DNA of 49,093 bases. Origin: a virus (Duplodnaviria > Heunggongvirae > Uroviricota > Caudoviricetes). Both the position numbers and the translations under genes were made by a program. Positions 1-42,560 of this stretch are shown in pieces (within the stretch, counting starts at the first letter, position 1; the number at the start of each line of letters is the position of its first letter). The stretch lies in IMG/VR virus record IMGVR_UViG_2718218136_000007, positions 1 through 49,093 of that record; one strand, given 5' to 3'. The notes under the pieces were generated by a model. That model was not told the origin of the DNA and made no database searches. It was given only the letters and a program-made list of their open reading frames with translations.

Positions 1-546
1 ATGAACATTAGTGAACTTAAAAACTGTATACACTATGAAGTAATAGGTTATAAACGCCCTTTCTCCTGGCGAAAAGCAATTGTTCGCGCAATAAAACACA
101 GAAGATTACGTTATTTATTTTGGTGGCGCATAGCAAAATATCTTTTTGATAAAGGCGGATACCGGCGAAAGGTTGCAGGAAAAATAGAACGCTTCATTCT
201 TGATAAATACAATGTAACCGTTCCCTTAACTGTAAATATTGGTAAAGGGTTCGACATATCTTATCTCAATGGCGTTGTTATCGGTCACAAAGTTACAATA
301 GGTGAAAATTGTTCAATTAAGCCTGGAGTAACTATTGGACTTCGTGGTGAATTTAATGCTATGGATATTGTCATAGGAAATAATGTAACCATTGGCTGTA
401 ACGCCACCATCCTTGGTGGCAAAGTGCATATAGGGAATAATGTAAAAATAGGAGCTCATGCATTGGTACTGCATGACATTCCTGATGACTCCACATTCAT
501 TACTAAATTTCACTCTGAAATTATTTATAACTCATCTCACACATAA
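1..546 (+). CDS. Hexapeptide-repeat (left-handed beta-helix) acyl/acetyltransferase; moron distal to the tail fibre genes
   Basis: 181-aa ORF with repeated [LIV]-G-x-x-x-x hexapeptide motifs (VIGHKVTIGENCSI, VIGNNVTIGCNATILGG, VHIGNNVKIGAHALV); AT-rich relative to phage genes; opposite strand to tail genes. Confidence 0.6.
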   Translation: MNISELKNCIHYEVIGYKRPFSWRKAIVRAIKHRRLRYLFWWRIAKYLFDKGGYRRKVAGKIERFILDKYNVTVPLTVNIGKGFDISYLNGVVIGHKVTIGENCSIKPGVTIGLRGEFNAMDIVIGNNVTIGCNATILGGKVHIGNNVKIGAHALVLHDIPDDSTFITKFHSEIIYNSSHT

Positions 547-556
547 TTCCGTTTAA

Positions 557-1129
557 TCACAGCTCTGGCCATACGATATCCGGGGCTGTATTTATATCAA
601 TCCGACTCACTAATACCCGGTATTTTTTCCAGGAAGATAGCATCGAGACATCCTCATCAGTTGCCATTTCAAAATTAACAGCATCCTGCAGAATTGTTAT
701 GTTATCAGTCGCTTCCTGGATTAATCTTGCCTTTTTCTCTTCCGCCTCCCGGATCCGGAACAGTTTTTCTACTTCTGCATCTTTCACCCAGGCTGTACCG
801 TTCCACTTCTGAAACTCCCCATCCGGCGACAACCAGGTGACATTTTCCGGTAACGAGCCAAGTTCAGAAATAAATAACGCGTCGCCGGAAGCCACGTCAT
901 AGACGGTTTTTCCCCGATGATCTTCAACGAGATGCCACGATGCCTCATCACTGTTGAAAACAGCCACAAAGCCAGCCGGAATATCTGGCGGTGCAATATC
1001 GGTACTGTTTGCTGGCAGACCTGTATGAGGCGGAATATATGCGTCACCTTCACCAATAAATTCATTAGTTCCGGCCAGCAGATTATAAATTTTTATGGTC
1101 CGTGGTTGTTCACTCATTCTGAATGCCAT
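557..1129 (-). CDS. tfa: Tail fibre assembly protein (Tfa)
   Basis: 190 aa; N-terminus [48 protein letters not shown] matches lambda Tfa from memory; start overlaps stf stop (TAATG). Confidence 0.85.
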
Positions 1130-4100
1130 TATGCAAGCCTCACAATATAGTTAAATGCGATGTTTTTGACGGTGTTTTCCGCGTTACCAGCAGCGTTAAC
1201 GGTGATGGTGTGTCCATGTGAACCAATCGCAACGGAGTGCGTGTGTGCACCAATACCGACAGTATGTGCGTGTGCACCTGCAGATGCTGCTGTGCCGGAC
1301 AGTGAGTGGCTATGGTTACCATCTGTACTGGTATTAGCTAACGCCCCCGTAGACATACCTACTGAGCCTTGTACACCCCAGGTATTTTGACCTGAGCTTG
1401 TATAACCATATTGATAAGTATCTTTAAAAACACTGGGGTTAAATCGACGGCCATCTCTATGGCTGTGATTACCAGCTGCATTCGTGCTGCCACTTAAACT
1501 ATGGGTATGCGCACCAGTGTTATTCGTGGATTTAGTGCCGTAATCAAACGACGATGTGGTTTTCGTCCCCAAATCAGTACTGGATGCGCTGGCGCTGTGG
1601 GTATGCGATTTTATGCCGTCCTGTTCCTGAGACAATACGGCACGACCACTGGCGGGCTTGCCCTTAATCGTCCAGCCACGCATATCAGGGATCACGCCTG
1701 ACGGATAAGCGGCTGCAAGTTTCGGGTAGGCAGATTTGTCAAAAGTCTGCCCCTGCATCAGGGCATAACCAGACGGAACGGTATCTGATGGCCACGGGAT
1801 TGGTGCGCCGACTGGGTAGCTTTCTGGTGGAAGATTTTTCGAGGTATAAACTTCTGCCCAGTCTTCCTCAAAACCATAACCGTCTCTTGAAGAACGGTAG
1901 AACAGACCACCATTTCTGTAATGCGCCTTCATCTGCAAGGTCCGGCAACTTCCGACTCCGGTATAGAAGTTAACCAGAATATAGCTGTCGCCAGAGCGGG
2001 TGACATTGTAAGCGCCTGATTCGGCATTCCAGGGAACGCCACCATCCGCATCGGCATATGTATCCGTTGCCCTTCTGGCAAAAGCAGCCACATGCGCGGC
2101 GGTTAAAGTAATATCTTTGGAACCATCAAACTCAACACCAGAAACCCGTCTTGGCGTTTGCAGCTTTGTTGCTGTCAATGCGTTACCGTTCAGACTTGCA
2201 GACAGCTTGGTTCCAATAACCAGTTCGCCGGTTGCGTTATCAATAGCAAACGGTCTTAATGTATTCCATCCACCATAAACATCACCTTGATTGGTAAGCA
2301 GCAGGTAAGTTTTAGCGCCATCATTACGCCATAATGCCCCATACTCCCCACCTATCATTCGAATCTGATTACCACCACGCGCTACAATTTCGTCTGTGGC
2401 AAAAAGTTTTTTGCACGACAAGTTATCGTTAACGATTAACGAATGGGACTCATAAAAACCACGCCCACTCTTAAAATCAAGGATAACGTCCGCCGCGATA
2501 CATTCAGTCGCCGGATTTGTTGCCCCAAACTTATAGGTCGTATCATCAACAACGAGATCAGCACCAGGTGCGGATATTGACAGGCCATCTTCGATAAACG
2601 CAAAAACAGGGAAAGCAGCGCCATCAACATAGAACACAGAGCGCAAATCATCGCCCTTATTACTCATCATTATTGAGTGGATGGCTCGTTCATTGTTTTG
2701 ATATTGCCAGAACATTCCATAAGCATAACGCCCCCTGTCAGTCCAGCCACCAGGCATAACAAATCCGTTAAACTCGCAGTTATTCATCGGATCGCCTGCG
2801 GTTCGCGTTGCCGTGGTGATAATGACCCTTGATGCCAGTTCGCTTACTGAGCCAGCAGAACGCATAACAACAACAGGATAATATTTTCCAGATGTTGCAC
2901 CTGCAGGAGCGTTAACCCGCACATAACGCATACCACGCTTATCAGCAAAGTCTGTTTTACTGACCGCGTTAATGTTGTTCAGGAAGCGTCCCTTATCGGG
3001 TATATCAGCGCCGTTCTGGTCTTTCTGCAGACGTTTCTCTGCATTGTCATAGGCTGCTTTTACTGCCTTTGGCGTTGCCGCCAGCGTTTCAGACGTGCTG
3101 TTGGTCGCGCTGCTGAGCTGTACTATCCCCTTTTTCGTCGTGCTCGCATCCTCAAGCGCCACGGCGGATGCAATATCCTCTGCCCGTTTTGCCGCTGTCT
3201 CGGCGCGCGTTGCTGCAGATTCCGCCGTACTTTTGCTCTGTGCTGCCGCCGTCGCACTGCCAGCTGCCTCTGTCGCCTTCGTGGATGCTGTCGTGGCGCT
3301 GCCCTTCGCTGCGGACGCTTGTCTGGTCGCCTCATCTTTTGAAGCAGACGCCGATGATGCCGATGACGCCGCCGAACTGGCGGACGATGCGGCAGCCGTT
3401 TTTGAGGATTCTGCGCTGGTTTCCGACGCTTTCGCGTTCGTCTCGGATGTCTTCGCTGCGGAAGCAGACCTCGCTGCTGCGCTGGCCTGTTCAGTGGCTT
3501 CGCCAGCCTTCGTTGTGGCTGTTGAAGCAGACGATGCGGCACTTTCTGCCGATTTTCCGGCGGCGGTGGCACTGGCTGAGGCCTGCCCGGCACTTGTTGA
3601 CGCTGCACTGGCAGACGACGCAGCCGCTGTTTTTGAGCCTGCCGCAGCCGAGGCGCTCTGTCCCGCTGCCGTTTCAGAAGACCTGGCGTTTGTCTCGGAC
3701 GTCTTTGCCGCCTTCGCGGAATTGCCTGCTGCCGTTGCCGAGGAAGCGGCACTACTGGCGCTTGATGATGCGTTCGTTTCTGATGATTTCGCTGCCTCTT
3801 TTGAGGCCGCCGCATCCCGGGCTGAGGTGGCAGCTTCTGACGCCTTCATGGTCGCGGCGGATGCAGAAGTGGCTGCTGATTGTTGTGACGCTGCCGCATT
3901 CGTTTCCGACGTTTTCGCCGCAGCGGCACTGGTGGCTGCCGCGCTTTTTGAGGACTCTGCAGCGGCAGCACTTTTTTCCGCTTCACTGGCCTTTGTTGAT
4001 GCCGTTCCTGCGCTGGAAGATGCTGACTGAGCCGACGTCGCGGCCTGCCCGGCTGATGTGCTGGCTGCACGTGCTGAGCCTGCAGCATCAGTCGCATGGG

Positions 4101-4527
4101 TTGCCGCCTCACGGGCTGATGTGCCGGCATCGCTGGCTGACTTCTTCGCGGCTGCCGTGTTCTGTGCCACCGCGGACGCGTTACGCGCCACCTCTTCCAC
4201 CATCAGTTCAAAACGGCGTAGTGCCTCCGGACGGGCATCATCCTCCGTCATGGCACCGAGAAAATCATTCAGCGTACCGGGTCGGGAATCTTCATACACG
4301 GTGATGGTCCCGGCATGTGACGGCGGGAATCCTTCCACCAACAGAATAACGCTGTACTGACCGTGCTCAACGTCCATGCTGTAACGCCCGGCTTCATCCG
4401 GATTTTCTGAGGCCAGCGTGTTCACCACCACCGTGGTGCTGTTACGTTTTGCTTTCAGCTGGATTGTGCAGTTCTGTACCGGTTTTCCTGTGCCGTCTTT
4501 CAGTACACCTGAAATCTTTACTGCCAT
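1129..4527 (-). CDS. stf: Side tail fibre protein (Stf) with long Ala/Ser/Thr-rich repeat region and C-terminal HxH-motif tip
   Basis: N-terminus [26 protein letters not shown] and C-terminus ...[11 protein letters not shown] match lambda Stf as recalled; ATG at 4527 (track start 4533 is an upstream GTG); KTSETNA-type repeats; GAHTHS/GNHSHS/GAHAHT motifs. Confidence 0.85.
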
Positions 4528-4537
4528 ATTCACCCCA

Positions 4538-4591: not shown

Positions 4592-5191
4592 TCAGAACTT
4601 ATAACCGACACCCACGATGAAACCGTCAGTGCGCCAGTCGCCACTGCCGGAGCCTTCATAAGCAATATCAATGGCCACGGATTCGGTCGGGTTAAACTGC
4701 ACGCCAGCTCCCCACGCCAGAGACGTGTTGCTGTGGCGACCGTCATCACTTCCGGTCAGCACATCGTGCGTTTTCCCCTTGTTGTCAGTTACGCGGAGAT
4801 AATCCCCGGAGAAAGTCGACACACGGCTGTAAGCCACACCCGCCATCGCATACGCGCTGAACCATTCATTCACGCGCACAGACGGCCCCGCCATTACGCT
4901 GAACCAGCGGTTACGAACGGAATCTTCATGCCAGCGGGTATCGCTGTAACGGGTCAGCTGGCGATTCTTGTCTCCTGCATAGCTGAATGACGTCACCAGC
5001 CCCAGTGTGTCCGTAAACTCATAACGGTATTTCACGTTAATCCCGTTCAGATCATCACTGCCGGGGACGTTCGTCGAGGCATGAAGATACCCCGCGCTCA
5101 GCGTGGACTGATGTTCAGACGCCCATGCAGGCGCACCGGATACGGCCAGACAAATGGCTGCGGACAAAATTGCTGCACAAACTTTACGCAT
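4592..5191 (-). CDS. lom: Outer membrane protein Lom (Ail/Lom family)
   Basis: 199 aa, N-terminal signal peptide MRKVCAAILSAAICLAVSGAPAWA, beta-barrel-like alternating pattern, ends ...GVGYKF; position between J and stf as in lambda. Confidence 0.85.
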   Translation of the reverse strand: MRKVCAAILSAAICLAVSGAPAWASEHQSTLSAGYLHASTNVPGSDDLNGINVKYRYEFTDTLGLVTSFSYAGDKNRQLTRYSDTRWHEDSVRNRWFSVMAGPSVRVNEWFSAYAMAGVAYSRVSTFSGDYLRVTDNKGKTHDVLTGSDDGRHSNTSLAWGAGVQFNPTESVAIDIAYEGSGSGDWRTDGFIVGVGYKF

Positions 5192-5261: not shown

Positions 5262-8200
5262 TCAACGAATACTGATGCCGGAAGCGGCTTTTTTGGTCAC
5301 AATCACCGTACAGTCGGTGATATTGCCTGCCCCCTGATTGCCTTTCTGGAAAATCTTAAACTCCAGAGTGACGCTTCCCCTGCCACTCGGCATATCAATA
5401 ACTGCACTGTAACTACCGGGAATGGCCCCTTTAGTTTCTCTGGATGCGATTAATACGCCGTTTTTGCGAACTTCAAAACCATAACCCGTGTATCGCGTGC
5501 CTCCTGGGTTATTTCCGCTCCCCGGATCGTCATACGCTATACCGTTAAAAATAATGGGCGGAATAATAATCTGGCGGTCAAAGTTATGATCATCGCTGAT
5601 GGTGACTGTAACCGTACCGTTTGGTGTTTCCGTGTTACCCCACGTACCGACTTTTTTCGGGAAGGCTTTTGATACAGCTTTAACGAAATCTCCTCTGACC
5701 TGGGTCGCCTCCAGCATGCCCTTAATCGTACAGTTCTGGTTAATCGTGACATTGTTGAGCGTTCCTGAGTTCGCATTCACACTGCCACTGATATCCGCAT
5801 TTTTCGCCGTCAGTCTCCCGTCTGATGTCAGGGAAAATGCCGGAGGATTACCGCCGCTGGTAATGGTGGGGGCCGTCAGGCGTTTCAGGAACACTTCATT
5901 CATGAATATCTGATCGCCCTGACCAACAAACATCGGCTTTGTGTTGCCATTCGCAGGATTAATCATCGCAATCCTGTCTGCTGCCAGCAGCACCTGACTC
6001 TGCATGCCGTCAGGGGTGTTCTCAATACCGGCACCGATACCCGCAATATAAAGGCGTCCGTCCTGCATCTGCTGCAGCTTCACTGCCCACATGCTGTTCA
6101 GGTTATTATTTGTATCAACCTGAACCTTCTGTATCTGCTGGATCGCTGCACTCTGGTCTTCCAGTTTCTTATTGACGGTCTGTGTTATTTCATTGCTGAC
6201 ATCCGTTATGGACGTCCTGATTTCAGTCAGGTCAGGCGCAAGCTGACCGTTATCAATCTGCGTCCACAGCTCCTGAGCCAGATGGGTTTTCCCTATCTCG
6301 CCTTTGAAAAAATCCAGATAGCCTGATGCATCATCACTCGGCTGACCGACAGCCTCCACGAATGCCGATTTGCCAACGGTGTTCACACTGCGAACGTAAA
6401 AATAATAATCATGGCCCGGTTTGATATTGATACTGGCGGCTATCCAGTACAGTGCCGTACCAAGATAACGCGCGCTGGTTTCAACCTGCCTGATATCCGC
6501 AATCCGTTTTTCCGAGAACCAGAACTCAAACTGTACCGTCGGGTCATAAACCGCAAGATGCGGCGTGGCAGTTATCTGAAAATAGCCCGGCGTCAGCTCA
6601 ATCCGCGACGGTGCTACCGGTGCGGCAATCCTGAACGATACCGACGCCGGATCGCCCTGCTGTCCCCACGCATTTACCGCCCGGACTGTCAGCGTGTACC
6701 GTCCCAGCGCCAGTTGCGTGAAGCGGTATGTGGTTTCCGCCGTCCGGGCCGTGCTGACCAGCCGCTCACTGCCGTCATCCGCTGCCACGGTCAGGCGAAG
6801 CAGGAAGCTCACGCCCTTCACCACCTTCGGCGTGTCCCATCGCGCCAGCACCTGATATTCCCCGCTGTCTGCAGTGACTTCGGCGGTCAGATGCTGCACT
6901 GCTGGCGGCGTGACACCATTCACCGTGCCGCTCTGGTCGCCGTCAAAGTGCGCCCCGTTATCCACGATGGCCTCTTTTTCCGGTACATGCTGCACGGCGG
7001 TGATGGCATACGTGCCGTCATCGTTCTCACGGATACTCACGCAGCGGAACAGGCGCTGGCGCAGCGTCGGCAGCTTCAGCCCCCACACGCTGTATCCGGC
7101 AACGCCGTCAGGAACACGGCTCACTTTTACCTTCACGCCGTCGGTGACGGACTGGACCTCCACGCTGACCGGATTGCCACTTCCGTCAACCAGGCTTATC
7201 AGCGTGGTACCGGAGGATGGCAGCGTGATTTCACGGTCGAGCGTCAGCGTCCGGGTCTGGCTGTTCACCGCCAGCACGCGCCCGCCGATGCTGATACCGG
7301 CATAGTCATCATCGCAGATTTCAATGACATCGCCCGGTACATGGCGAAGCCCTTCGGCACCCACGCTGAAGTCCACGGTCTGCGTTTCCAGCAGTTCTGT
7401 TTTAATCAGCCACAGCCCGGCGCGGTGTGCCTGCCCCCGGCTGGTACAGCCAAAAGCATCCATCTTCGTGACGTTACGACCGTAACGGGCAATGGCCTGC
7501 GTGTCCTCCACAAGCTCTGTCGCCGTCTCCCAGCCGTTATTCGGGTCAATCCAGTTCACCTCAACGGCATTATGGCGGTCCTTCAGGGCGCTGAAGCTGT
7601 AGCGGAACGGCGCACCATCATCCGGCATCACCACATTACTGCGGTTATAGGTCCACACCTTATCCGACGGTCGGTCCTGCACGAACGTCAGCGTCTGCCC
7701 GTTCCATACCGGCATACAGCGCATCGCAGAGCAGAAATCACTGAGCACATCCCACGCCTTGCGCTGTGTGGTCAGGTACGCATTACAGGTGATGCGCGGC
7801 TCCGTGCCGCCAAAACCGTCCGGCACCGACTGATCGCAATGCTGGCCGATGACATACAGCGCCCATTTGTCCACATCCGCCGCACCAAGACGTTTCCCCA
7901 TGCCGTAGCGCGGATGGGTCAGCATATCCCACAGACACCAGGCCATGTTGTTGCTGTATGCTGGCTTAAACGTTCCGTCCCAGATACCGCTGTATTGCCG
8001 CGTCTGCGGGTTATAGTTCGACGGCACCTGCAGAATGCGCCCGCGCAGATGATAATTACGGCTCACCTGCTGGCTGCCGAACTGCTCCGAATCCACCTGC
8101 ACGCCGACCAGTGCCGTGTTCGGGTAGCACTGTTTCACATCGATGATTTCGGTGTATGACGACCAGAGCGTTTTGTTCTGCAGCTGGTCTGTGGTGCTGT

Positions 8201-8759
8201 CCGGCGTCATCCTGCGCATCCGTATATTGAACGGGCGCGGCGGCAGGTTACCCACCACCACCGAGGCCAGATACTGCGAGGTGGTTTTGCCCTTAATGGT
8301 GATGTCTTTTTCCGTCACCCAGCCACCATTACGCTGGATCTGAACCAGCAGGCGGACTTCCGACGGATTCCGGTCCCCCTTTGAGGTGGTTTCCACCAGT
8401 GCCTGCACGCCGAAGGTAAAGCGCAGACGGTCAATGTTTGCCGACGTGATGGTCCGGGTGATCGGCGTGTCATATTTCACTTCTGTACCGAGCACCGTCT
8501 CGGAGCCGGAGGATTCAAATCCCTCCGGCGGTGTCTGCTCCTGCTCACCGGCCCGGAACACCACCGTGACGCCGGATATATTGGTATTCCCCTCACTGTC
8601 CAGCACCGGCGTACTGTTCAGCAGCACGCTTTTTAATCCATCCACCGGACCTTCAACCGGCCCTTCGCTGATGGCATCGATCACACTCAGCAGCTGCGTG
8701 GACTTCAGGTTGTCCTTCGCTTCGCGCGGGGTATGCCCCTTACTGCTGCCTTTACCCAT
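5262..8759 (-). CDS. J: Central tail fibre / host specificity protein J
   Basis: 1165 aa; N-terminus [37 protein letters not shown] is lambda J-like; position after I. Confidence 0.9.
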
Positions 8760-8819: not shown

Positions 8820-9461
8820 TCAGCGACCAATCACCACAACCTGACCACCGTCCCCTTCGTCTGCCGTGCTGATCTCCTGAGAAACCACACGTGACCCCAC
8901 ACGCATTTCACCGTACAGAACGGGCAGGACATTGCCCTGGGCAACCATATTATCCAGTGAAGAAAAATAGGTGTTCTGTTTGCCGTTATCCGTTGTCTGT
9001 GTGCGGGGGGTTTTGGGTTTAGGGGCCAGCATCTGTGCAACACCGCCAAGCGTCATACTGGCACCGAGAGAAAACAGCAGATTACTCGCCATAATTCCTA
9101 CCCCCGGCATCCATATAGCAACCGCCATAACAGCCGCCCCCAGCACAGCCTGAAACACACCGCCACTTTTGGCTCCCGCCAGACGCGGCACGATATGGAT
9201 CACAGCACCATTTGCCAGCGGTTCATTAAGACGGGCTGATAATTCCGTTTCACCTGTATCACGCCCGGCAATGCGTACCTGATACCAGCCGTCGCTCAGC
9301 TTCTGACGAAACGCCGGGATCTGCATGGCCAGCGCCCGGATGGCTTCGGCCCCCGTTTTCACACGCAGATCGATGCGGCGGCCAAATCGTTGTAAATCCC
9401 CGTAAAGGCAGATGCGCGCCATGCCCGGTGACGCCAGAGGGAGTGTGTGCGTCGCTGCCAT
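8820..9461 (-). CDS. I: Tail assembly protein I
   Basis: 213 aa, MAATHTLPLASPGMARICLYGDLQRF... ending ...GDGGQVVVIGR, lambda I-like; overlaps 3' end of K. Confidence 0.85.
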   Translation of the reverse strand: MAATHTLPLASPGMARICLYGDLQRFGRRIDLRVKTGAEAIRALAMQIPAFRQKLSDGWYQVRIAGRDTGETELSARLNEPLANGAVIHIVPRLAGAKSGGVFQAVLGAAVMAVAIWMPGVGIMASNLLFSLGASMTLGGVAQMLAPKPKTPRTQTTDNGKQNTYFSSLDNMVAQGNVLPVLYGEMRVGSRVVSQEISTADEGDGGQVVVIGR

Positions 9462-10806: not shown

Positions 10807-11135
10807 CAGTTCACCACCTGTTCAAACTCTGCGCTGAACTCAACACGCAGCATACTGACCCGCGACGACCATTTTGCGCAGGTCACCTTTATCTGCCGCC
10901 ACTCATAAGGCGGCGTCCACAGAAAGGCTTTCCAGCCCCCGTGCTCTTCCAGAAACGACTCCAGTACCGTGGCCTCCTCACGGGGGACAGAAAGCGTCAC
11001 GCTGTACGTTTTCAGGTTGGCATTCAGCCCGGCAGGCGCTCGCTGAGAATAGCCATCACCAAAGCGCACCTTTCTTACAGAAGGGACCGAAGCCACATCC
11101 ATACCGGGTTTCACTTTCCAGCGGAAGGTCTTCAT
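10806..11135 (-). CDS. M: Tail tip protein M
   Basis: 109 aa, lambda M-like; overlapping start/stop with L and H. Confidence 0.9.
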   Translation of the reverse strand: MKTFRWKVKPGMDVASVPSVRKVRFGDGYSQRAPAGLNANLKTYSVTLSVPREEATVLESFLEEHGGWKAFLWTPPYEWRQIKVTCAKWSSRVSMLRVEFSAEFEQVVN

Positions 11136-12242
11136 CGTCCACCTCCGGAGAACAGGCCACCATCACGCATCTGTGTCTGAATTTCATCACGGGCACCCTT
11201 GCGGGCCATGTCATACACTGCCTTCATCATCTGTGGACCTGGCAGACCATTCGTACCGTCGTTCTGAATCACCACGTTGTTGTTCTGCTCAAACCTGATA
11301 CCCTCTGAACGCCGCATTTGCGCCGGACTTCCGGTGCCACCGACATAACCGCCGGTGGCATAGCCGCGCATCAGCCGGTAGAGATTTCCCACGCCAATCC
11401 GGCTGGTTGCCTCCTTCGTGAAGACAAATTCACCACGGTGAACAATCCCCGCTGGCTCATATTTGCCGCCGGTTCCCGTAAATCCTCCGGTTGCAAAATG
11501 GAATTTCGCCGCAGCGGCCTGAATGGCTGTACCGCCTGACGCGGATGCGCCGCCACCAACAGCCCCGCCAATGGCGCTGCCGATACTCCCGACAATCCCC
11601 ACCATTGCCTGCTTAAGCAGAATTTCTGTCATCATGGACAGCACGGAGCGGGTGAAGCTGCGCCAGTTCTGCTCACTGCCGGTCAGCATCGCCGCCATAT
11701 TCTGTGCAATACCATCAAAGGTCTGCGTGGCTGCACTTTTTACCTGCGACATACTGTCCGTGGCGCTCTCTTCCCACTCACTCCAGCCGGACTTCAGGCC
11801 TGCCATCCAGCTCCCGCGAAGCTGGTCTTCAGCCGCCCAGGTCTTTTTCTGCTCTGACATGACGTTATTCAGCGCCAGCGGATTATCGCCATACTGTTCC
11901 TTCAGGCGCTGTTCCGTGGCTTCCCGTTCTGCCTGCCGGTCAGTCAGCCCCCGGCTTTTCGCATCAATGGCGGCCCGTTTTGCCCGTTGCTGCTGTGCGA
12001 ATTTATCCGCCTGCTGCGCCAGCGCGTTCAGGCGCTCCTGATACGTAACCTTGTCGCCAAGTGCAGCCAGCTGGCGTTTGTACTCCAGCGTCTCATCTTT
12101 ATGCGCCAGCAGGGATTTCTCCTGTGCAGACAGCTGGCGACGTTGCGCCGCCTCCTCCAGTACCGCGAACTGACTCTCCGCCTTCCACAAATCCCGGCGC
12201 TGCTGGCTGATTTTCTCATTTGCTCCGGCATGCTTCTCCAGC
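11132..12242 (-). pseudogene. H: Tape measure protein H, 3' fragment (gene split by IS66-family insertion)
   Basis: ORF 11132-12334 begins with 25 IS-derived residues, then continues ...TLEKHAGANEKISQQRRDLWK... to ...RDGGLFSGGGR (lambda H C-terminus). Confidence 0.85.
12235..12242. repeat. 8-bp target-site duplication (TCTCCAGC), left copy, flanking the IS66-family element
   Basis: Identical octamer at 14942-14949; flanks join to give continuous H coding sequence (...LRTLEKHAG...). Confidence 0.8.
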
Positions 12243-12295
12243 GTAACCGGCTCATTTAAACCGTCTGGTCTATTTCCTCCGGCTCTACAAAAATA

Positions 12296-12973
12296 ATGTC
12301 CATCATTTTTAATGGACACTATCGTATGAAACACCGGACCTGGATCACTGAAGCTTTACGTCTTCACTTTGAAGAACATTTACCCCGGGTTGTGGCCGGG
12401 CGTCGCCTGGGTGTACCAAAATCAACAGTTTGTAGTATGTTCGTGCGCTTTCGGAGAGCTGGCCTTTCGTGGCCTTTGCCCGCAGGCATGTCGGAGCAGG
12501 AACTTGATGCCTGCCTTTACGGACAATTTTCCACGGTACCAGTCGTACGTCCTGAAAGCACCGTTATATCCGAAGCCCCCATGGTAAAAAAACGTCCCCG
12601 GCGGCCCAACTTCCCTTATGAGTTTAAAATCGCCTTAGTGGAGCAGTCACTGCAGCCCGGAGCCTGTGTGGCGCAGATCGCCCGGGAAAACGGAATCAAC
12701 GATAACCTGCTCTTCAACTGGCGCCATCAATACCGGAAAGGTGGCCTGCTGCCTTCCGGAAAAAATATGCCGGCACTGCTTCCCGTGACGTTAACGCCGG
12801 AGCCGGATAATAAAATCCCGGCCCCCGCACAGGAACCAGAGCAGATAAATACACCGTCCGACAGTCTGTGTTGTGAGCTGGTTCTGCCGGCCGGAACTCT
12901 CAGGCTTAAAGGTAAACTGACGCCGGCGTTATTACAGACACTTATCCGCGAAATAAAAGGGAGCAGCCACTGA
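12296..12973 (+). CDS. IS66-family accessory protein TnpA (OrfA), HTH; start uncertain (internal ATG at 12581 gives a 130-aa product)
   Basis: C-terminal part ...QPGACVAQIARENGINDNLLFNWRHQYRKGG... typical of IS66 OrfA; stop overlaps tnpB start (ATGA). Confidence 0.7.
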   Translation: MSIIFNGHYRMKHRTWITEALRLHFEEHLPRVVAGRRLGVPKSTVCSMFVRFRRAGLSWPLPAGMSEQELDACLYGQFSTVPVVRPESTVISEAPMVKKRPRRPNFPYEFKIALVEQSLQPGACVAQIARENGINDNLLFNWRHQYRKGGLLPSGKNMPALLPVTLTPEPDNKIPAPAQEPEQINTPSDSLCCELVLPAGTLRLKGKLTPALLQTLIREIKGSSH

Positions 12974-13320
12974 TGATATCTCTCCCTGCAGGTTCGCGTA
13001 TCTGGCTGGTTGCAGGTATCACCGATATGCGAAATGGCTTTAACGGCCTGGCATCAAAAGTTCAGAACGTCCTGAAGGATGACCCGTTCTCCGGACACCT
13101 GTTCATCTTCCGCGGACGCCGGGGTGACCAGATAAAAGTGTTGTGGGCTGACAGTGACGGACTGTGCCTCTTCACCAAACGCCTGGAGCGGGGCCGCTTC
13201 GTCTGGCCAGTCACCCGTGACGGCAAGGTGCACCTTACTCCGGCTCAGTTATCCATGCTTCTTGAAGGTATCAACTGGAAGCACCCGAAACGAACGGAAC
13301 GCGCTGGAATCCGCATATAA
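12973..13320 (+). CDS. IS66-family TnpB (Orf2)
   Basis: 115 aa, MISLPAGSRIWLVAGITDMRNGFNGLA... characteristic of IS66 Orf2. Confidence 0.8.
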   Translation: MISLPAGSRIWLVAGITDMRNGFNGLASKVQNVLKDDPFSGHLFIFRGRRGDQIKVLWADSDGLCLFTKRLERGRFVWPVTRDGKVHLTPAQLSMLLEGINWKHPKRTERAGIRI

Positions 13321-13339
13321 CCCGTTGTAAAGTGAGGAT

Positions 13340-14911
13340 ATGGACACCTCACTTGCTCATGAGAACGCCCGCCTGCGGGCACTGTTGCAGACGCAACAGG
13401 ACACCATCCGCCAGATGGCTGAATACAACCGCCTGCTCTCACAGCGGGTGGCGGCTTATGCTTCCGAAATCAACCGGCTGAAGGCGCTGGTTGCGAAACT
13501 GCAACGTATGCAGTTCGGTAAAAGCTCAGAAAAACTTCGTGCAAAAACCGAACGGCAGATACAGGAAGCACAGGAGCGAATCAGCGCACTTCAGGAAGAA
13601 ATGGCGGAAACGCTGGGTGAGCAATATGACCCGGTACTGCCATCCGCCCTGCGCCAGTCTTCAGCCCGTAAACCGTTACCGGCCTCACTTCCCCGTGAAA
13701 CCCGGGTTATCCGGCCGGAAGAGGAATGCTGTCCTGCCTGTGGTGGTGAACTCAGTTCTCTGGGATGTGATGTGTCAGAGCAACTGGAGCTTATCAGCAG
13801 CGCCTTTAAGGTTATCGAAACACAACGTCCGAAACAGGCCTGTTGCCGGTGCGACCATATCGTGCAGGCACCAGTACCTTCAAAACCCATTGCACGCAGT
13901 TATGCCGGAGCGGGGCTTCTGGCCCATGTTGTCACCGGGAAATATGCAGACCATCTGCCGTTATACCGCCAGTCAGAAATATACCGTCGTCAGGGAGTGG
14001 AGCTGAGCCGTGCCACACTGGGGCGCTGGACAGGTGCTGTTGCTGAACTGCTGGAGCCGCTGTATGACGTCCTGCGCCAGTATGTGCTGATGCCCGGTAA
14101 AGTCCATGCTGATGATATCCCCGTCCCGGTCCAGGAGCCGGGCAGCGGTAAAACCCGGACAGCCCGGCTGTGGGTCTACGTCCGTGATGACCGTAACGCC
14201 GGTTCACAGATGCCCCCGGCGGTCTGGTTCGCGTACAGTCCGGACCGGAAAGGTATCCATCCACAAAATCACCTGGCCGGTTACAGCGGTGTGCTTCAGG
14301 CCGATGCTTACGGTGGTTACCGGGCGTTATACGAATCCGGCAGAATAACGGAAGCCGCGTGTATGGCTCATGCCCGGAGAAAAATCCACGATGTGCATGC
14401 AAGAGCGCCCACCTACATCACCACGGAAGCCCTGCAGCGTATCGGTGAACTGTATGCCATCGAGGCAGAGGTCCGGGGCTGTTCAGCAGAACAGCGTCTG
14501 GCGGCAAGAAAAGCCAGAGCCGCGCCACTGATGCAGTCACTGTATGACTGGATACAGCAACAGATGAAAACACTGTCGCGTCACTCAGATACGGCAAAAG
14601 CGTTCGCATACCTGCTGAAACAGTGGGATGCACTGAACGTGTACTGCAGTAATGGCTGGGTGGAAATCGACAACAACATCGCAGAGAACGCCTTACGGGG
14701 AGTGGCCGTAGGCCGGAAAAACTGGATGTTCGCGGGTTCCGACAGCGGTGGTGAACATGCGGCGGTGTTGTACTCGCTGATCGGCACATGCCGTCTGAAC
14801 AATGTGGAGCCAGAAAAGTGGCTGCGTTACGTCATTGAACATATCCAGGACTGGCCGGCAAACCGGGTACGCGATCTGTTGCCCTGGAAAGTTGATCTGA
14901 GCTCTCAGTAA
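13340..14911 (+). CDS. IS66-family transposase TnpC
   Basis: 523 aa, N-terminal leucine-zipper-like region, CxxC...CxxC zinc motif (CCPACGG...CCRCDH), DDE-type core. Confidence 0.8.
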
Positions 14912-14941
14912 ATATCAATACGGTTCTGACGAGTCGCTTAC

Positions 14942-16418
14942 TCTCCAGCGTCCGGAGTTCTGCCTGAAGCGTCAGCAGGGCAGCATGAGCACTGTCTTCC
15001 TGACGATCGCCCGCAGACACCTTCACGCCGGACTGTTTCGGCTTTTTCAGCGTCGCTTCATAATCCTTTTTCGCCGCCGCCATCAGCGTGTTGTAATCCG
15101 CCTGCAGGATTTTCCCGTCTTTCAGTGCCTTGTTCAGTTCTTCCTGACGGGCGGTATATTTCTCCAGCGGCGTCTGCAGCCGTTCGTAAGCCTTCTGCGC
15201 CTCTTCGGTATATTTCAGCCGTGATGCCTCAGACTCGACCCAGTCCTTTGCTGCCATCTCTCTGGCCTTTTCAAGATCGGCCTGCAACGTGGCGGCTGAA
15301 AGCCCAAGTTGCGCATTCGCTCTGTCCTCCCATGCTCCCCGGAGATTGGCAAGAAATGCTGAGGTTTTACCGCGCCGGTGGCTCCGGCTCTGATACCACT
15401 GCCATTTTTTGTCCGCCTCATCAAAAGCCTTTTCTGCTTTCTCCAGCATTCCCTGGGCAGTGTCCGGGCGACCAATATCCAGCACCGAATCCCACATGGA
15501 TTTGAATGCCCGTGCTGTCCTGTCTGCCCAGGTCTCCAGCGTGCCCATGTTCTCTTTCAGGCGGCGGGTCTGGTCATCAAACCCTTTCGTTGCGGCCTCG
15601 TTCGCCGCCTGCAATGCCCCGGCTTCATCTCCGGAACGCTGCAACTGAGCAACATACGCAATCTGCTCCGCCGTCACGTTATGGAACTGACGTGCCATCG
15701 CTGTCAGTCCCGACGTCGGGTCTGTGGTCAGCTTCCCGAAGGCTTCAGCGACCTTGTCCACCTCCACGCCGGATGCAGAGGAGAAACGCGCCACACTCTG
15801 GCTGATCGCCTCAAACTGCTCACCACCACGCACACCGGCATTCACCAGCGCCGTCAGTGACTCGCTGGTCTGGTTAAACGTCAGCCCTGCCGCCTGCCCG
15901 GCTCTGGACAGGACCAGCATACGATCTGCCGTCAGTCCCGCCTGATTGCCGGAAAGGACCAGCGTTTTGTTGAAATCGGACAGGGTTGAGTTGCCCTGAT
16001 ACCAGGCATACGCCAGCGCACCGGTCGCCACCGCCAGCGAGGTGGCCCCCACCATCGGCAGGGTGATCGCACCGGCAAGCCCCCTGAACATGGGGATCAT
16101 CCCGCCGAAGGAGTCCTTAACCTGACCCCCCTGTTGCAGCAGGATCAGCCACGGGCTTTGCCCGCCTGCAAGCTGCGTGGCCACGTCGGTGAACTGTGCA
16201 GGCAGCATACGCATGGCGGCTTTATACTGCCCGACGGAAATCCCCGCTTTCTGTGCAGCCAGCGCCTGTCGGCTCAGCGACTGTTCAACGACTGCCGCTG
16301 TTTTTTTCGCATCAGTTTCCGTACCGGAAAAATGACGCCTGACTCTGGCCATCTGCTCGTCAAATCTGGCCGCATCCAGACTTAAATCAACGACCAGATC
16401 GCCTACCGGTTCAGCCAT
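14942..16418 (-). pseudogene. H: Tape measure protein H, 5' fragment (truncated by IS66-family insertion)
   Basis: ORF 14832-16418 begins MAEPVGDLVVDLSLDAARFDEQMARVRRHF (lambda H N-terminus), runs to ...LQAELRTLE, then 36 IS-derived codons and a stop. Confidence 0.85.
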
Positions 16419-41231: not shown

Positions 41232-42560
41232 CTGAGAGATCCCCTCATAATTTCCCCAAAGCGTAACCATGTGTGAATAAATTTTGAGCTAGTAGGGTTG
41301 CAGCCACGAGTAAGTCTTCCCTTGTTATTGTGTAGCCAGAATGCCGCAAAACTTCCATGCCTAAGCGAACTGTTGAGAGTACGTTTCGATTTCTGACTGT
41401 GTTAGCCTGGAAGTGCTTGTCCCAACCTTGTTTCTGAGCATGAACGCCCGCAAGCCAACATGTTAGTTGAAGCATCAGGGCGATTAGCAGCATGATATCA
41501 AAACGCTCTGAGCTGCTCGTTCGGCTATGGCGTAGGCCTAGTCCGTAGGCAGGACTTTTCAAGTCTCGGAAGGTTTCTTCAATCTGCATTCGCTTCGAAT
41601 AGATATTAACAAGTTGTTTGGGTGTTCGAATTTCAACAGGTAAGTTAGTTGCTAGAACCCATGGCTCCTTTGCCGACGCTGAGTAGATTTTAGGTGACGG
41701 GTGGTGACAATGAGTCCGTGTCGAGCGCTGATTTTTTCGGCCTTTAGAGCGAGATTTATACAATAGAATTTGGCATGAGATTGGATTGCTTTTAGTCAGC
41801 CTCTTATAGCCTAAAGTCTTTGAGTGACTAGATGACATATCATGTAAGTTGCTGATAGGTTTCCAGTTTTCCGCTCCTAGGTCTGCATATTGTACTTTTC
41901 CTCTTACTCGACTTAACCAGTACCAACCCAGCTTCTCAACGGATTTATACCATGGCACTTTAAAGCCAGCATCACTGACAATGAGCGGTGTGGTGTTACT
42001 CGGTAGAATGCTCGCAAGGTCGGCTAGAAATTGGTCATGAGCTTTCTTTGAACATTGCTCTGAAAGCGGGAACGCTTTCTCATAAAGAGTAACAGAACGA
42101 CCGTGTAGTGCGACTGAAGCTCGCAATACCATAAGTCGTTTTTGCTCACGAATATCAGACCAGTCAACAAGTACAATGGGCATCGTATTGCCCGAACAGA
42201 TAAAGCTAGCATGCCAACGGTATACAGCGAGTCGCTCTTTGTGGAGGTGACGATTACCTAACAATCGGTCGATTCGTTTGATGTTATGTTTTGTTCTCGC
42301 TTTGGTTGGCAGGTTACGGCCAAGTTCGGTAAGAGTGAGAGTTTTACAGTCAAGTAATGCGTGGCAAGCCAACGTTAAGCTGTTGAGTCGTTTTAAGTGT
42401 AATTCGGGGCAGAATTGGTAAAGAGAGTCGTGTAAAATATCGAGTTCGCACATCTTGTTGTCTGATTATTGATTTTTCGCGAAACCATTTGATCATATGA
42501 CAAGATGTGTATCTACCTTAACTTAATGATTTTGATAAAAATCATTAGGGGATTCATCAG
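41232..42560 (-). mobile_element. IS10 (1329 bp) insertion sequence
   Basis: Ends CTGAGAGATCCCCTCATAATTTCCCC (inside end, 41232-) and ...GGGGATTCATCAG (reverse complement of outside end CTGATGAATCCCC, ending 42560); flanked by 9-bp direct repeat TGCTGAGTA. Confidence 0.9.
41245..42453 (-). CDS. tnpA: IS10 transposase (IS4 family)
   Basis: 402 aa, MCELDILHDSLYQFCPELHLKRLNSLTLACHALLDCKTLTLTELGRNLPTKA... characteristic of Tn10/IS10 transposase. Confidence 0.9.
   Translation of the reverse strand: MCELDILHDSLYQFCPELHLKRLNSLTLACHALLDCKTLTLTELGRNLPTKARTKHNIKRIDRLLGNRHLHKERLAVYRWHASFICSGNTMPIVLVDWSDIREQKRLMVLRASVALHGRSVTLYEKAFPLSEQCSKKAHDQFLADLASILPSNTTPLIVSDAGFKVPWYKSVEKLGWYWLSRVRGKVQYADLGAENWKPISNLHDMSSSHSKTLGYKRLTKSNPISCQILLYKSRSKGRKNQRSTRTHCHHPSPKIYSASAKEPWVLATNLPVEIRTPKQLVNIYSKRMQIEETFRDLKSPAYGLGLRHSRTSSSERFDIMLLIALMLQLTCWLAGVHAQKQGWDKHFQANTVRNRNVLSTVRLGMEVLRHSGYTITREDLLVAATLLAQNLFTHGYALGKL

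Follow-up and report, generated by a model that had tools for sequence, protein, structure and literature searches.

We analyzed a 49,093-nucleotide stretch of viral DNA (IMG/VR record IMGVR_UViG_2718218136_000007, positions 1 to 49,093), referred to here in its whole length as the window. Our subject is the gene at its left end, at 1-546 on the plus strand. Its product has the left-handed beta-helix (LbH) fold, which is the fold of hexapeptide-repeat acyltransferases, and we call it the LbH gene. It lies next to a set of phage tail genes (tfa, stf, lom, and J), all of which are on the opposite strand. The features of this end of the window are as follows, with one position also given in an identical copy of the locus (L001) that is introduced below.

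1..546, plus strand: LbH gene, a complete open reading frame (ORF) of 181 amino acids, with ATG at 1 and TAA at 544-546
456..476 (L001 9476-9456), minus strand: terminator-like hairpin and T-run inside the LbH ORF, about 80 bp past the tfa stop codon
557..1129, minus strand: tfa, tail fiber assembly (Caudo_TAP, E=4.7e-37; named 'tail fiber assembly protein' by the Prokaryotic Genome Annotation Pipeline, PGAP, in relatives)
557..731, minus strand: 3' third of tfa, inherited together with the LbH gene; lambda-type tfa homology starts only at 732
1129..4533, minus strand: stf, side tail fiber, 1134 amino acids, with a His-rich tip
4592..5191, minus strand: lom
5262..8759, minus strand: J

The LbH gene and tfa are convergent, and 10 bp separate their stop codons in the window. 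The GC content of the LbH gene is 35.9% (27.5% at third codon positions), compared with 52.5% for the whole window, 46% for tfa, and 53.5% for stf. A first-pass annotation of the window had described an AT-rich gene on the opposite strand just beyond tfa, and these values agree with that description. The first position of the window is the start of the LbH ATG, and its other end coincides with the ATG of an integrase gene on the minus strand. Because both edges fall on start codons, we conclude that the window was trimmed to gene ends, and the promoter region of the LbH gene therefore lies outside it. The 5' end of the gene could be examined at locus L001, from genome FDAARGOS_1277, where the LbH gene is identical to the window copy (0 differences). 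An in-frame stop codon lies 11 codons before the ATG at this locus, with no ATG, GTG, or TTG between them, and PGAP annotates the same 546-bp coding sequence. The upstream stop and the matching annotation establish that the reading frame is complete.

The hairpin at 456..476 might end the late transcript that reads through tfa. It was the one terminator-like site found on the minus strand, compared with 1.4 expected by chance, which is not a significant count. No plus-strand terminator that could serve the LbH gene itself was detected.

The fold of the LbH protein is supported by several comparisons. The Pfam Hexapep model (PF00132) matched with E=1.1e-13 (50.6 bits; gathering score, 27). An AlphaFold2 model of the monomer, built from a 57-sequence alignment, reached a pLDDT of 91.1 and a pTM of 0.83; its four N-terminal helices lead into short beta coils, which start at residue 71. 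Acyltransferases of the LbH superfamily form homotrimers that bind acyl-CoA between subunits, and the model covers one subunit. Among the 50 Foldseek matches listed for this model, all were LbH structures of serine acetyltransferases (SATs), with the best TMq values at 0.72-0.76, and the best PDB sequence matches were also SATs (E about 1e-12). The hexapeptide-repeat acyltransferase class named in the first-pass annotation is therefore well founded. Only hexapeptide families appeared among the Pfam matches at E<=0.01, with neither the SATase_N domain (PF06426) nor Acyl_transf_3 among them.

Assignment to a characterized family was less direct. The protein matches PHROG 2154, a family of unknown function, over nearly its full length (E=2.6e-77, residues 1-180 against profile positions 4-184 of 185), and it passes no NCBIfam family cut-off. 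The best NCBIfam score was to EpsC (NF041874; 86.3 bits, cut-off 150), followed by CysE (TIGR01172, 76.5 bits, cut-off 210.65; PRK11132, 50.2 bits, cut-off 397) and WcaB (TIGR04016, 60.3 bits, cut-off 194.65; NF007564, 61.2 bits, cut-off 196). WbbJ, LacA, and Maa all scored 30-40 bits (WbbJ 39.6 against a cut-off of 243; LacA 34.6 against 347). WbbJ, WcaB, and NodL had been suggested as the types among which the closest characterized transferase would be found. The WcaB part of that suggestion stands, in that the protein falls on the CysE/EpsC/WcaB branch, and the WbbJ/NodL part does not; all of the scores are far below the cut-offs. A search of 1.84 billion representative proteins returned 4 at E<=1e-30, 825 at 1e-10, and 8520 at 1e-3. 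The close clade is small and sharply set apart, with bit scores that drop from >150 to <100. Judged from its sequence and predicted structure, the product of the LbH gene is a soluble protein with an acyl-CoA-transferase fold, of the CysE/EpsC/WcaB branch, and is not a SAT.

We compared the active site with those of E. coli CysE and WcaB by aligning the window protein with both sequences from the K-12 genome. In CysE, His158 is the general base and Asp143 is its partner, and Asp92, Asp157, Arg192, and His193 are also key active-site residues (PMC9547175). All six are replaced in the window protein.

CysE His158 (general base): Y88
CysE Asp143 (partner of His158): T73
CysE Asp92 (active-site or ligand contact): P20
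CysE Asp157 (active-site or ligand contact): S87
CysE Arg192 (active-site or ligand contact): M121
CysE His193 (active-site or ligand contact): D122

The replacement of the general base is characteristic of a single subclade. The His158 column holds histidine in 227 of 247 relatives and tyrosine in 16, and 15 of these 16 belong to the subclade of the window protein (at least 52% identity, n=15). Every member of this subclade has tyrosine at the histidine position and threonine, lysine, or valine at the aspartate position, and nearly all have Met-Asp at 121-122. Phage and enterobacterial relatives at 34-50% identity keep the (Asp/Glu)+His pair and lack the Arg-His pair, which indicates that the family is not serine-specific. 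The catalytic histidine is retained in NeuO, CysE, and WcaB, and all LbH enzymes crystallized up to 2011 share it (NeuO paper, PMC3046976). Since the His-Asp pair corresponds to Tyr88 and Thr73 in the window protein, ordinary O-acetyltransferase chemistry cannot be assumed. We estimated selection on the gene by comparison with its alleles from P1-like elements (see below). The ratio of nonsynonymous to synonymous substitution rates (dN/dS) was 0.075-0.087, at a dS of 0.64-0.70, and this low ratio indicates strong purifying selection on the LbH protein. From these comparisons, the active site looks re-wired or re-purposed and not decayed.

We used protein P0045 (176 amino acids; L140 6001-6531) as a positive control for this comparison. 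It is a short SAT whose gene overlaps the end of a PALP-domain gene, probably a cysteine synthase gene, and five of the six CysE residues are present in it, the exception being the P93 position. The control shows that true SATs can be this short and that their active-site residues distinguish them from the phage family.

We examined four contexts to determine where the LbH gene lies relative to the ends of its prophages (L001, L002, L022/L023, and L003). At L001, the gene belongs to a prophage remnant in the ybhB-ybhC interval, the lambda site. The 15-bp lambda att core (reverse complement TTAGTATAAAAAAGC) is found at 8488-8502, 499 bp outside the ATG at 9001. The stretch that follows the core is presumably lambda attP arm sequence. 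At L002 (enterotoxigenic E. coli H10407) and L022/L023 (DX6), the order is prfC, dinI-like gene, capsid fragment, invertase remnant, LbH gene, tfa, stf, lom, J, and at the other end dsr1, int, and yjjG. The right end of the window (dsr1 and int) is 100% identical to DX6, which identifies this prfC/yjjG element as the window's own type of prophage. About 0.8 kb separates the LbH gene from the prfC-side end of this element. At L003 (RM8082), the LbH gene adjoins pphA in a myovirus-type prophage that carries baseplate J and DUF2612 genes.

The LbH alleles at these three chromosomal sites are identical or 97-99% identical, and each is inside a prophage. The host genes prfC or pphA lie further out than the LbH gene at L002, L022, and L003, and the prophage boundary was thus beyond the gene, not between it and tfa, in all four contexts. 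We conclude that the LbH gene is prophage cargo and not a host gene. The name 'serine acetyltransferase' that annotation gives it, which would suggest a housekeeping enzyme of the host, is a misannotation.

The prfC/yjjG boundary rests on the flanking host genes, because the two ends have only a 14-bp word in common and no exact att repeat was found for this prophage. The word is at L022 4155-4168, in the 5' end of prfC, and at L023 6825-6838, in a short pseudogene fragment by yjjG. Integration of the prophage may occur in the start of prfC, which it would then replace. TGTACA-rich repeats are present at both ends.

The distribution of the LbH gene shows that it is mobile. We searched 5426 complete E. 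coli genomes with window positions 1-1200. Some part of the query matched in 4444 genomes, 224 genomes covered at least 80% of it, and about 95% of the genomes that matched the tfa/stf part lacked the LbH gene. Among the 40 E. coli matches listed, all had a gene named 'serine acetyltransferase' adjoining one named 'tail fiber assembly protein.' A phage collection yielded 42 matching records, only one of which covered at least 80% of the query, spanning 1-1200. Among the 30 phage records listed, 27 matched 732-1200 only, and phage ev099 (two listings) matched 562-1200 and lacked the LbH gene. The gene is missing from lambda and ev099 despite a homologous tfa. Because ordinary lambda tfa homology starts at 732, we define the moving unit as the LbH gene plus the 3' third of tfa.

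This unit is found well beyond lambda-like prophages. Phage vB_EcoM-613R2 carries the LbH gene at 85.7% DNA identity, and 58 plasmids carry it at 80-91% identity. These plasmids, which are mostly 90-120 kb and non-mobilizable, are taken to be P1-like phage-plasmids. A P1-like locus has the order R, S, tfa, LbH gene, lydAB, and darA. A P2-like locus carries a relative with 52% protein identity. The tip of the window Stf also accompanies the LbH gene in the P1-like locus, and the 613R2 tip differs from it by one residue. We conclude that recombination transfers the cassette, with the 3' part of tfa attached, between prophages of lambda-like, P1-like, P2-like, and other myovirus types. In the P1-like (L013 5528-5564) and 613R2 (L021 810-846) alleles, Tfa has a 15-amino acid C-terminal extension, and its ORF consequently runs 37 bp into that of the convergent LbH gene.

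The left edge of the cassette coincides with a promoter-like element. The sequence TAGAAA-17-TATAAT lies at L001 8934-8962 on the plus strand, from 67 to 39 bp upstream of window position 1 and hence outside the window. It is kept in four of five aligned sequences, which represent the lambda-like, myovirus, and P1-like contexts; 613R2 has TACAAT as the -10 sequence. Alignment of the upstream sequences of these three contexts holds only over the last 75 bp or so before the ATG, and the homology breaks directly before the -35 sequence. The cassette is thus predicted to bring its own sigma-70-like promoter, which would make it a moron in the classical definition. The first-pass annotation had proposed a moron at this position, and the proposal is borne out by the conserved promoter-like element, the GC content (36% compared with 52.5%), the presence or absence of the gene among otherwise similar phages such as lambda and ev099, and its location inside the prophage (inside att at L001).

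A remnant of a Gin/Pin-type invertase borders the cassette in window-type alleles. The C-terminal helix-turn-helix end of this protein (...AQAGRLIASGVSRQKVAIIYDVGVSTLYKKFPGGDK) is encoded at L001 8788-8916 on the minus strand, 84 bp upstream of window position 1. The remnant is found only beside window-type alleles, 25-70 bp upstream of the stop-to-stop open frame of the LbH gene. It is always truncated, to 36-51 amino acids, and the L001 copy has an internal stop and no N-terminus. We considered a working invertible segment and rejected it, because the invertase is truncated in every case and no intact invertase adjoins any relative. The truncated gene at its left edge places the cassette at the border of a decayed invertible segment for alternative fibers.

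We extended the analysis of gene neighborhoods to the whole family. An alignment-based scan for relatives produced 80 IMG/VR loci and 33 genome loci; 93 full-length relatives had at least 700 bp of downstream sequence, and these formed 28 clusters at 80% identity. A Caudo_TAP gene was convergent with the relative and within 60 bp of it in 61 of the 93. This arrangement was present in 10 of the 28 clusters and reached down to 34-35% identity to the window protein. Clusters L073 and L096 abut an unannotated ORF of 457-480 amino acids, which in L073 follows a DUF2612 baseplate gene and may encode a tail fiber. In clusters L070 and L071, tfa is about 0.7-1 kb away. The remaining relatives either lie at prophage ends, with an integrase or repressor gene as neighbor, or stand as orphans on chromosomes of enterobacteria. 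The genes that adjoin the phage relatives are tail, integrase, repressor, terminase, and portal genes only.

Some of the orphans could be placed in a chromosomal context. Orphan relatives at 43-49% identity (L009 6001-6552; L137 6001-6459) have no phage genes near them. P0022 lies between genes for a heavy-metal P-type ATPase and a MerR-family regulator (probably copA and cueR), and the protein between the ATPase and MerR genes is named as one of the Citrobacter freundii complex. P0037 is near a PmrD-family gene, and P0014 is in a contig rich in insertion sequences (IS). The contexts of P0022, P0037, and P0014 are uninformative as to substrate.

We compared the LbH protein to characterized acyltransferases of similar fold or similar setting. 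NeuO, the LbH O-acetyltransferase that modifies the polysialic acid capsule of E. coli K1, is encoded by prophage CUS-3 (PDB 3JQY; PMC3046976) and raises phage resistance (PMC13001214). Prophage acetyltransferases also associate with K-loci in Klebsiella (PMC13123978). NeuO is the best functional analogue of the LbH protein, as both are soluble LbH-fold proteins encoded by single-gene accessory cargo of prophages. However, NeuO belongs to another LbH branch, and the 56 PDB sequences that the window protein matched at E<=1e-3 do not include 3JQY. NeuO keeps its catalytic His and Trp, whereas the window protein has Tyr88. The phase-variable heptanucleotide repeat at the 5' end of neuO (PMC3046976) has no counterpart in the window gene, and a search for tandem repeats that might support NeuO-like phase variation found none in positions 1-1200. 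Finally, NeuO is linked to a single capsule type and a single P22-like phage, whereas the LbH gene is found in at least four phage types.

The sequence and fold of the window protein are most similar to those of CysE (TIGR01172; PDB 1T3D, 4N69, and 6WYE), with a match that covers the last N-terminal helices and the LbH domain. The two differ in that the window protein scores below the CysE cut-off, has lost all catalytic and serine-binding residues, lacks the SATase_N hexamerization domain and the CysK-binding tail, and occurs in a phage context rather than a cys context. The CysE C-terminal tail, which ends in Ile, serves the cysteine synthase complex; the window protein ends in ...NSSHT, with no terminal Ile. 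WcaB and EpsC resemble the window protein in being short (about 160-190 amino acids) SAT-like LbH proteins with an N-terminal helical bundle. In contrast to the window protein, which scores <60% of their cut-offs, WcaB keeps a Glu-His dyad, and these enzymes are encoded in polysaccharide clusters (wca for WcaB), whereas the LbH gene is a prophage orphan. Oac, OafA, and GtrC share with our proposal the principle of prophage cargo that changes the surface antigen and phage receptor of the lysogen. By the features that define them, the CysE, WcaB, WbbJ/NodL, and acyltransferase-3 families do not include the window protein.

Our best overall explanation is that the LbH gene is a single-gene moron that encodes an atypical LbH transferase and alters an envelope glycan or fiber receptor. 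We put this explanation forward tentatively, at a little short of an even chance. The expression pattern, acceptor, and phenotype that we propose are as follows. In the lysogen, its own promoter would drive transcription of the gene toward the silent late operon; once the late genes fire, read-through would suppress LbH expression. Late transcription would collide with the LbH gene because only 10 bp separate the stop codons (or the ORFs overlap by 37 bp, as in the P1-like alleles) and no plus-strand terminator was detected. The protein, as single-gene cargo, would act alone on a cytoplasmic acceptor supplied by the host. The acceptor would most likely be an envelope-glycan intermediate, such as the lipopolysaccharide (LPS) core on lipid A, an undecaprenyl diphosphate-linked O-unit, a unit of enterobacterial common antigen or colanic acid, or a nucleotide sugar. 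Modifying such a glycan would alter the surface met by Tfa-dependent tail fibers and lead to receptor masking or lysogenic conversion. Catalysis, if it is retained, would rely on another base, or on a nucleophile that requires no base, with Asp122 at the position of CysE His193. We favor an envelope glycan as the target because of the coupling to tfa, the exopolysaccharide acetyltransferases among the relatives, and the precedent of NeuO.

Several observations weigh against this explanation. No glycosyltransferase, flippase, gtr, or other glycan gene adjoins the relatives. The general-base histidine that most relatives keep is replaced by Tyr88 in the window subclade. Linkage to tfa may reflect co-transfer instead of function, with the end of the late operon being a general site for morons. 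The gene is present in strains from many hosts and in P1-like phage-plasmids, which would argue against a single acceptor specific to one O-serotype. Seroconverting enzymes of the Oac/OafA type are integral-membrane acyltransferase-3 proteins of unrelated fold, and the window protein is small and soluble and does not match Acyl_transf_3. No Shine-Dalgarno sequence is evident upstream of the LbH ATG in the L001 sequence. For the receptor role itself we stay below an even chance, because no partner genes accompany the LbH gene, the catalytic base is missing, and the end of a late operon attracts morons in general. A more specific version of the proposal is unlikely in our estimation: that this is a tail-fiber-linked family of cytoplasmic LbH proteins exchanged with the 3' end of tfa by at least four phage architectures, and that its Tyr88/Asp122 subclade, re-wired for catalysis (possibly with an aspartate base or an amine acceptor), modifies a conserved envelope intermediate, such as the LPS core at the cytoplasmic face, and thereby masks the receptor of the phage's own fiber.

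A cytoplasmic acetyltransferase that is expressed in the lysogen could instead have a target away from the surface, such as a small molecule, a protein, or a component of an invading phage, and act as an anti-phage or fitness factor. The genes of the family are carried singly, at the ends of prophages and just after tfa, and in P2-like phages the post-tfa region is a hotspot for defense genes. The same prophage also carries dsr1, no glycan partner genes were found, and the atypical active site suggests an unusual acceptor. A scan of PADLOC-DB 2.0, however, returned 0 defense families at E<=1, so the LbH gene cannot be filed as a known defense gene. The nearest characterized relatives are SATs and polysaccharide acetyltransferases, and the family-wide coupling to tail fiber genes is more easily explained by a receptor-related role. 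We therefore consider a target away from the surface rather unlikely.

The LbH protein could also be a non-catalytic pseudoenzyme that binds a ligand or partner, for example to sequester an intermediate or regulate a host enzyme. The joint loss of the His-Asp dyad, with Y88 and T, K, or V at position 73 in 15 of 15 subclade members, is what such a protein would show, and strong purifying selection shows that the protein is still used. However, conservation extends to the LbH core and to the glycine-rich coils of the CoA site, and Asp122 appeared jointly with Tyr88, a pattern that looks like re-wiring and not decay. Some LbH N-acyltransferases (DapD, WlbB, and QdtC) also do without a catalytic histidine. 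We find a pseudoenzyme improbable.

Two further alternatives fare much worse. An auxiliary metabolic gene that boosts cysteine synthesis through genuine serine O-acetyltransferase activity would fit the PGAP name and the SATs among the best PDB and fold matches; we consider it highly improbable, as the protein is far below the TIGR01172 and EpsC cut-offs, all six CysE active-site residues are replaced, the SATase_N domain and C-terminal Ile tail are lacking, and the control P0045, in contrast, keeps five of the six residues and adjoins a PALP-domain gene. A host chromosomal gene or a structural or accessory tail fiber gene, as might be suspected from the direct contact with tfa and the window edge at the start codon, is scarcely credible for an AT-rich, opposite-strand gene that lies inside a prophage at each of three chromosomal sites and is absent from lambda, ev099, and about 95% of genomes that match tfa/stf.

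We found no functional study of the LbH gene in the literature. The only direct mention is in the paper on the P1-like phage-plasmid JL22, which states that the reason for the gene's presence is unknown, and PMC9603915 puzzles over the 'serine acetyltransferase' label. That label is attached to a gene in about 4% of complete E. coli genomes and in many P1-like phage-plasmids, and it invites wrong metabolic inferences. Prophage morons for LbH acyltransferases are already known; what distinguishes this family is its coupling to tfa throughout and the derived Tyr/Asp active site. The coupling is a clear example of a moron exchanged within a tail-fiber cassette across phage families. The replacement of histidine by tyrosine under strong purifying selection makes the subclade well suited to testing whether the LbH fold can support other chemistry or serve a non-catalytic purpose. 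If the gene does modify a surface glycan, it would be a widespread and unrecognized determinant of phage receptor availability, and possibly of antigenicity, with relevance to phage therapy, host-range prediction, and serotyping. Masking of the fiber receptor, if it occurs, would be a way of converting a receptor with a soluble protein and no partners, unlike either NeuO or the membrane Oac/Gtr systems.

The rest of the window contains the following additional features of the carrying prophage.

12296-14911: IS66-family element that splits the lambda-type tape-measure gene (11132-16418)
12296-12973, 12973-13320, and 13340-14911, plus strand: IS66-family ORFs
29025-30077, minus strand: N6/N4 DNA methylase gene
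41245-42453, minus strand: second transposase, DDE_Tnp_1 (second IS)
43860-47687, minus strand: dsr1, a 1275-amino acid SIR2-domain protein, defense sirtuin
47870-49093, minus strand: tyrosine integrase

TMP_2 is found on one side of the IS66-family element and Tape_meas_lam_C on the other. Because the tape-measure gene is split in this way, the carrying prophage is probably defective. That the LbH gene remains intact in a decaying element, with no difference from the lambda-site copy of another strain, fits with selection for its function in the host. The name dsr1 (anti-phage defense-associated sirtuin) is the one PGAP gives in genomes that match the end of the window at 100% identity. In relatives, the dsr1 and integrase end (43860..49093) abuts host yjjG. 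Opposite the LbH side, it delimits the element that carries the LbH gene, and dsr1 is a further cargo gene of that element.

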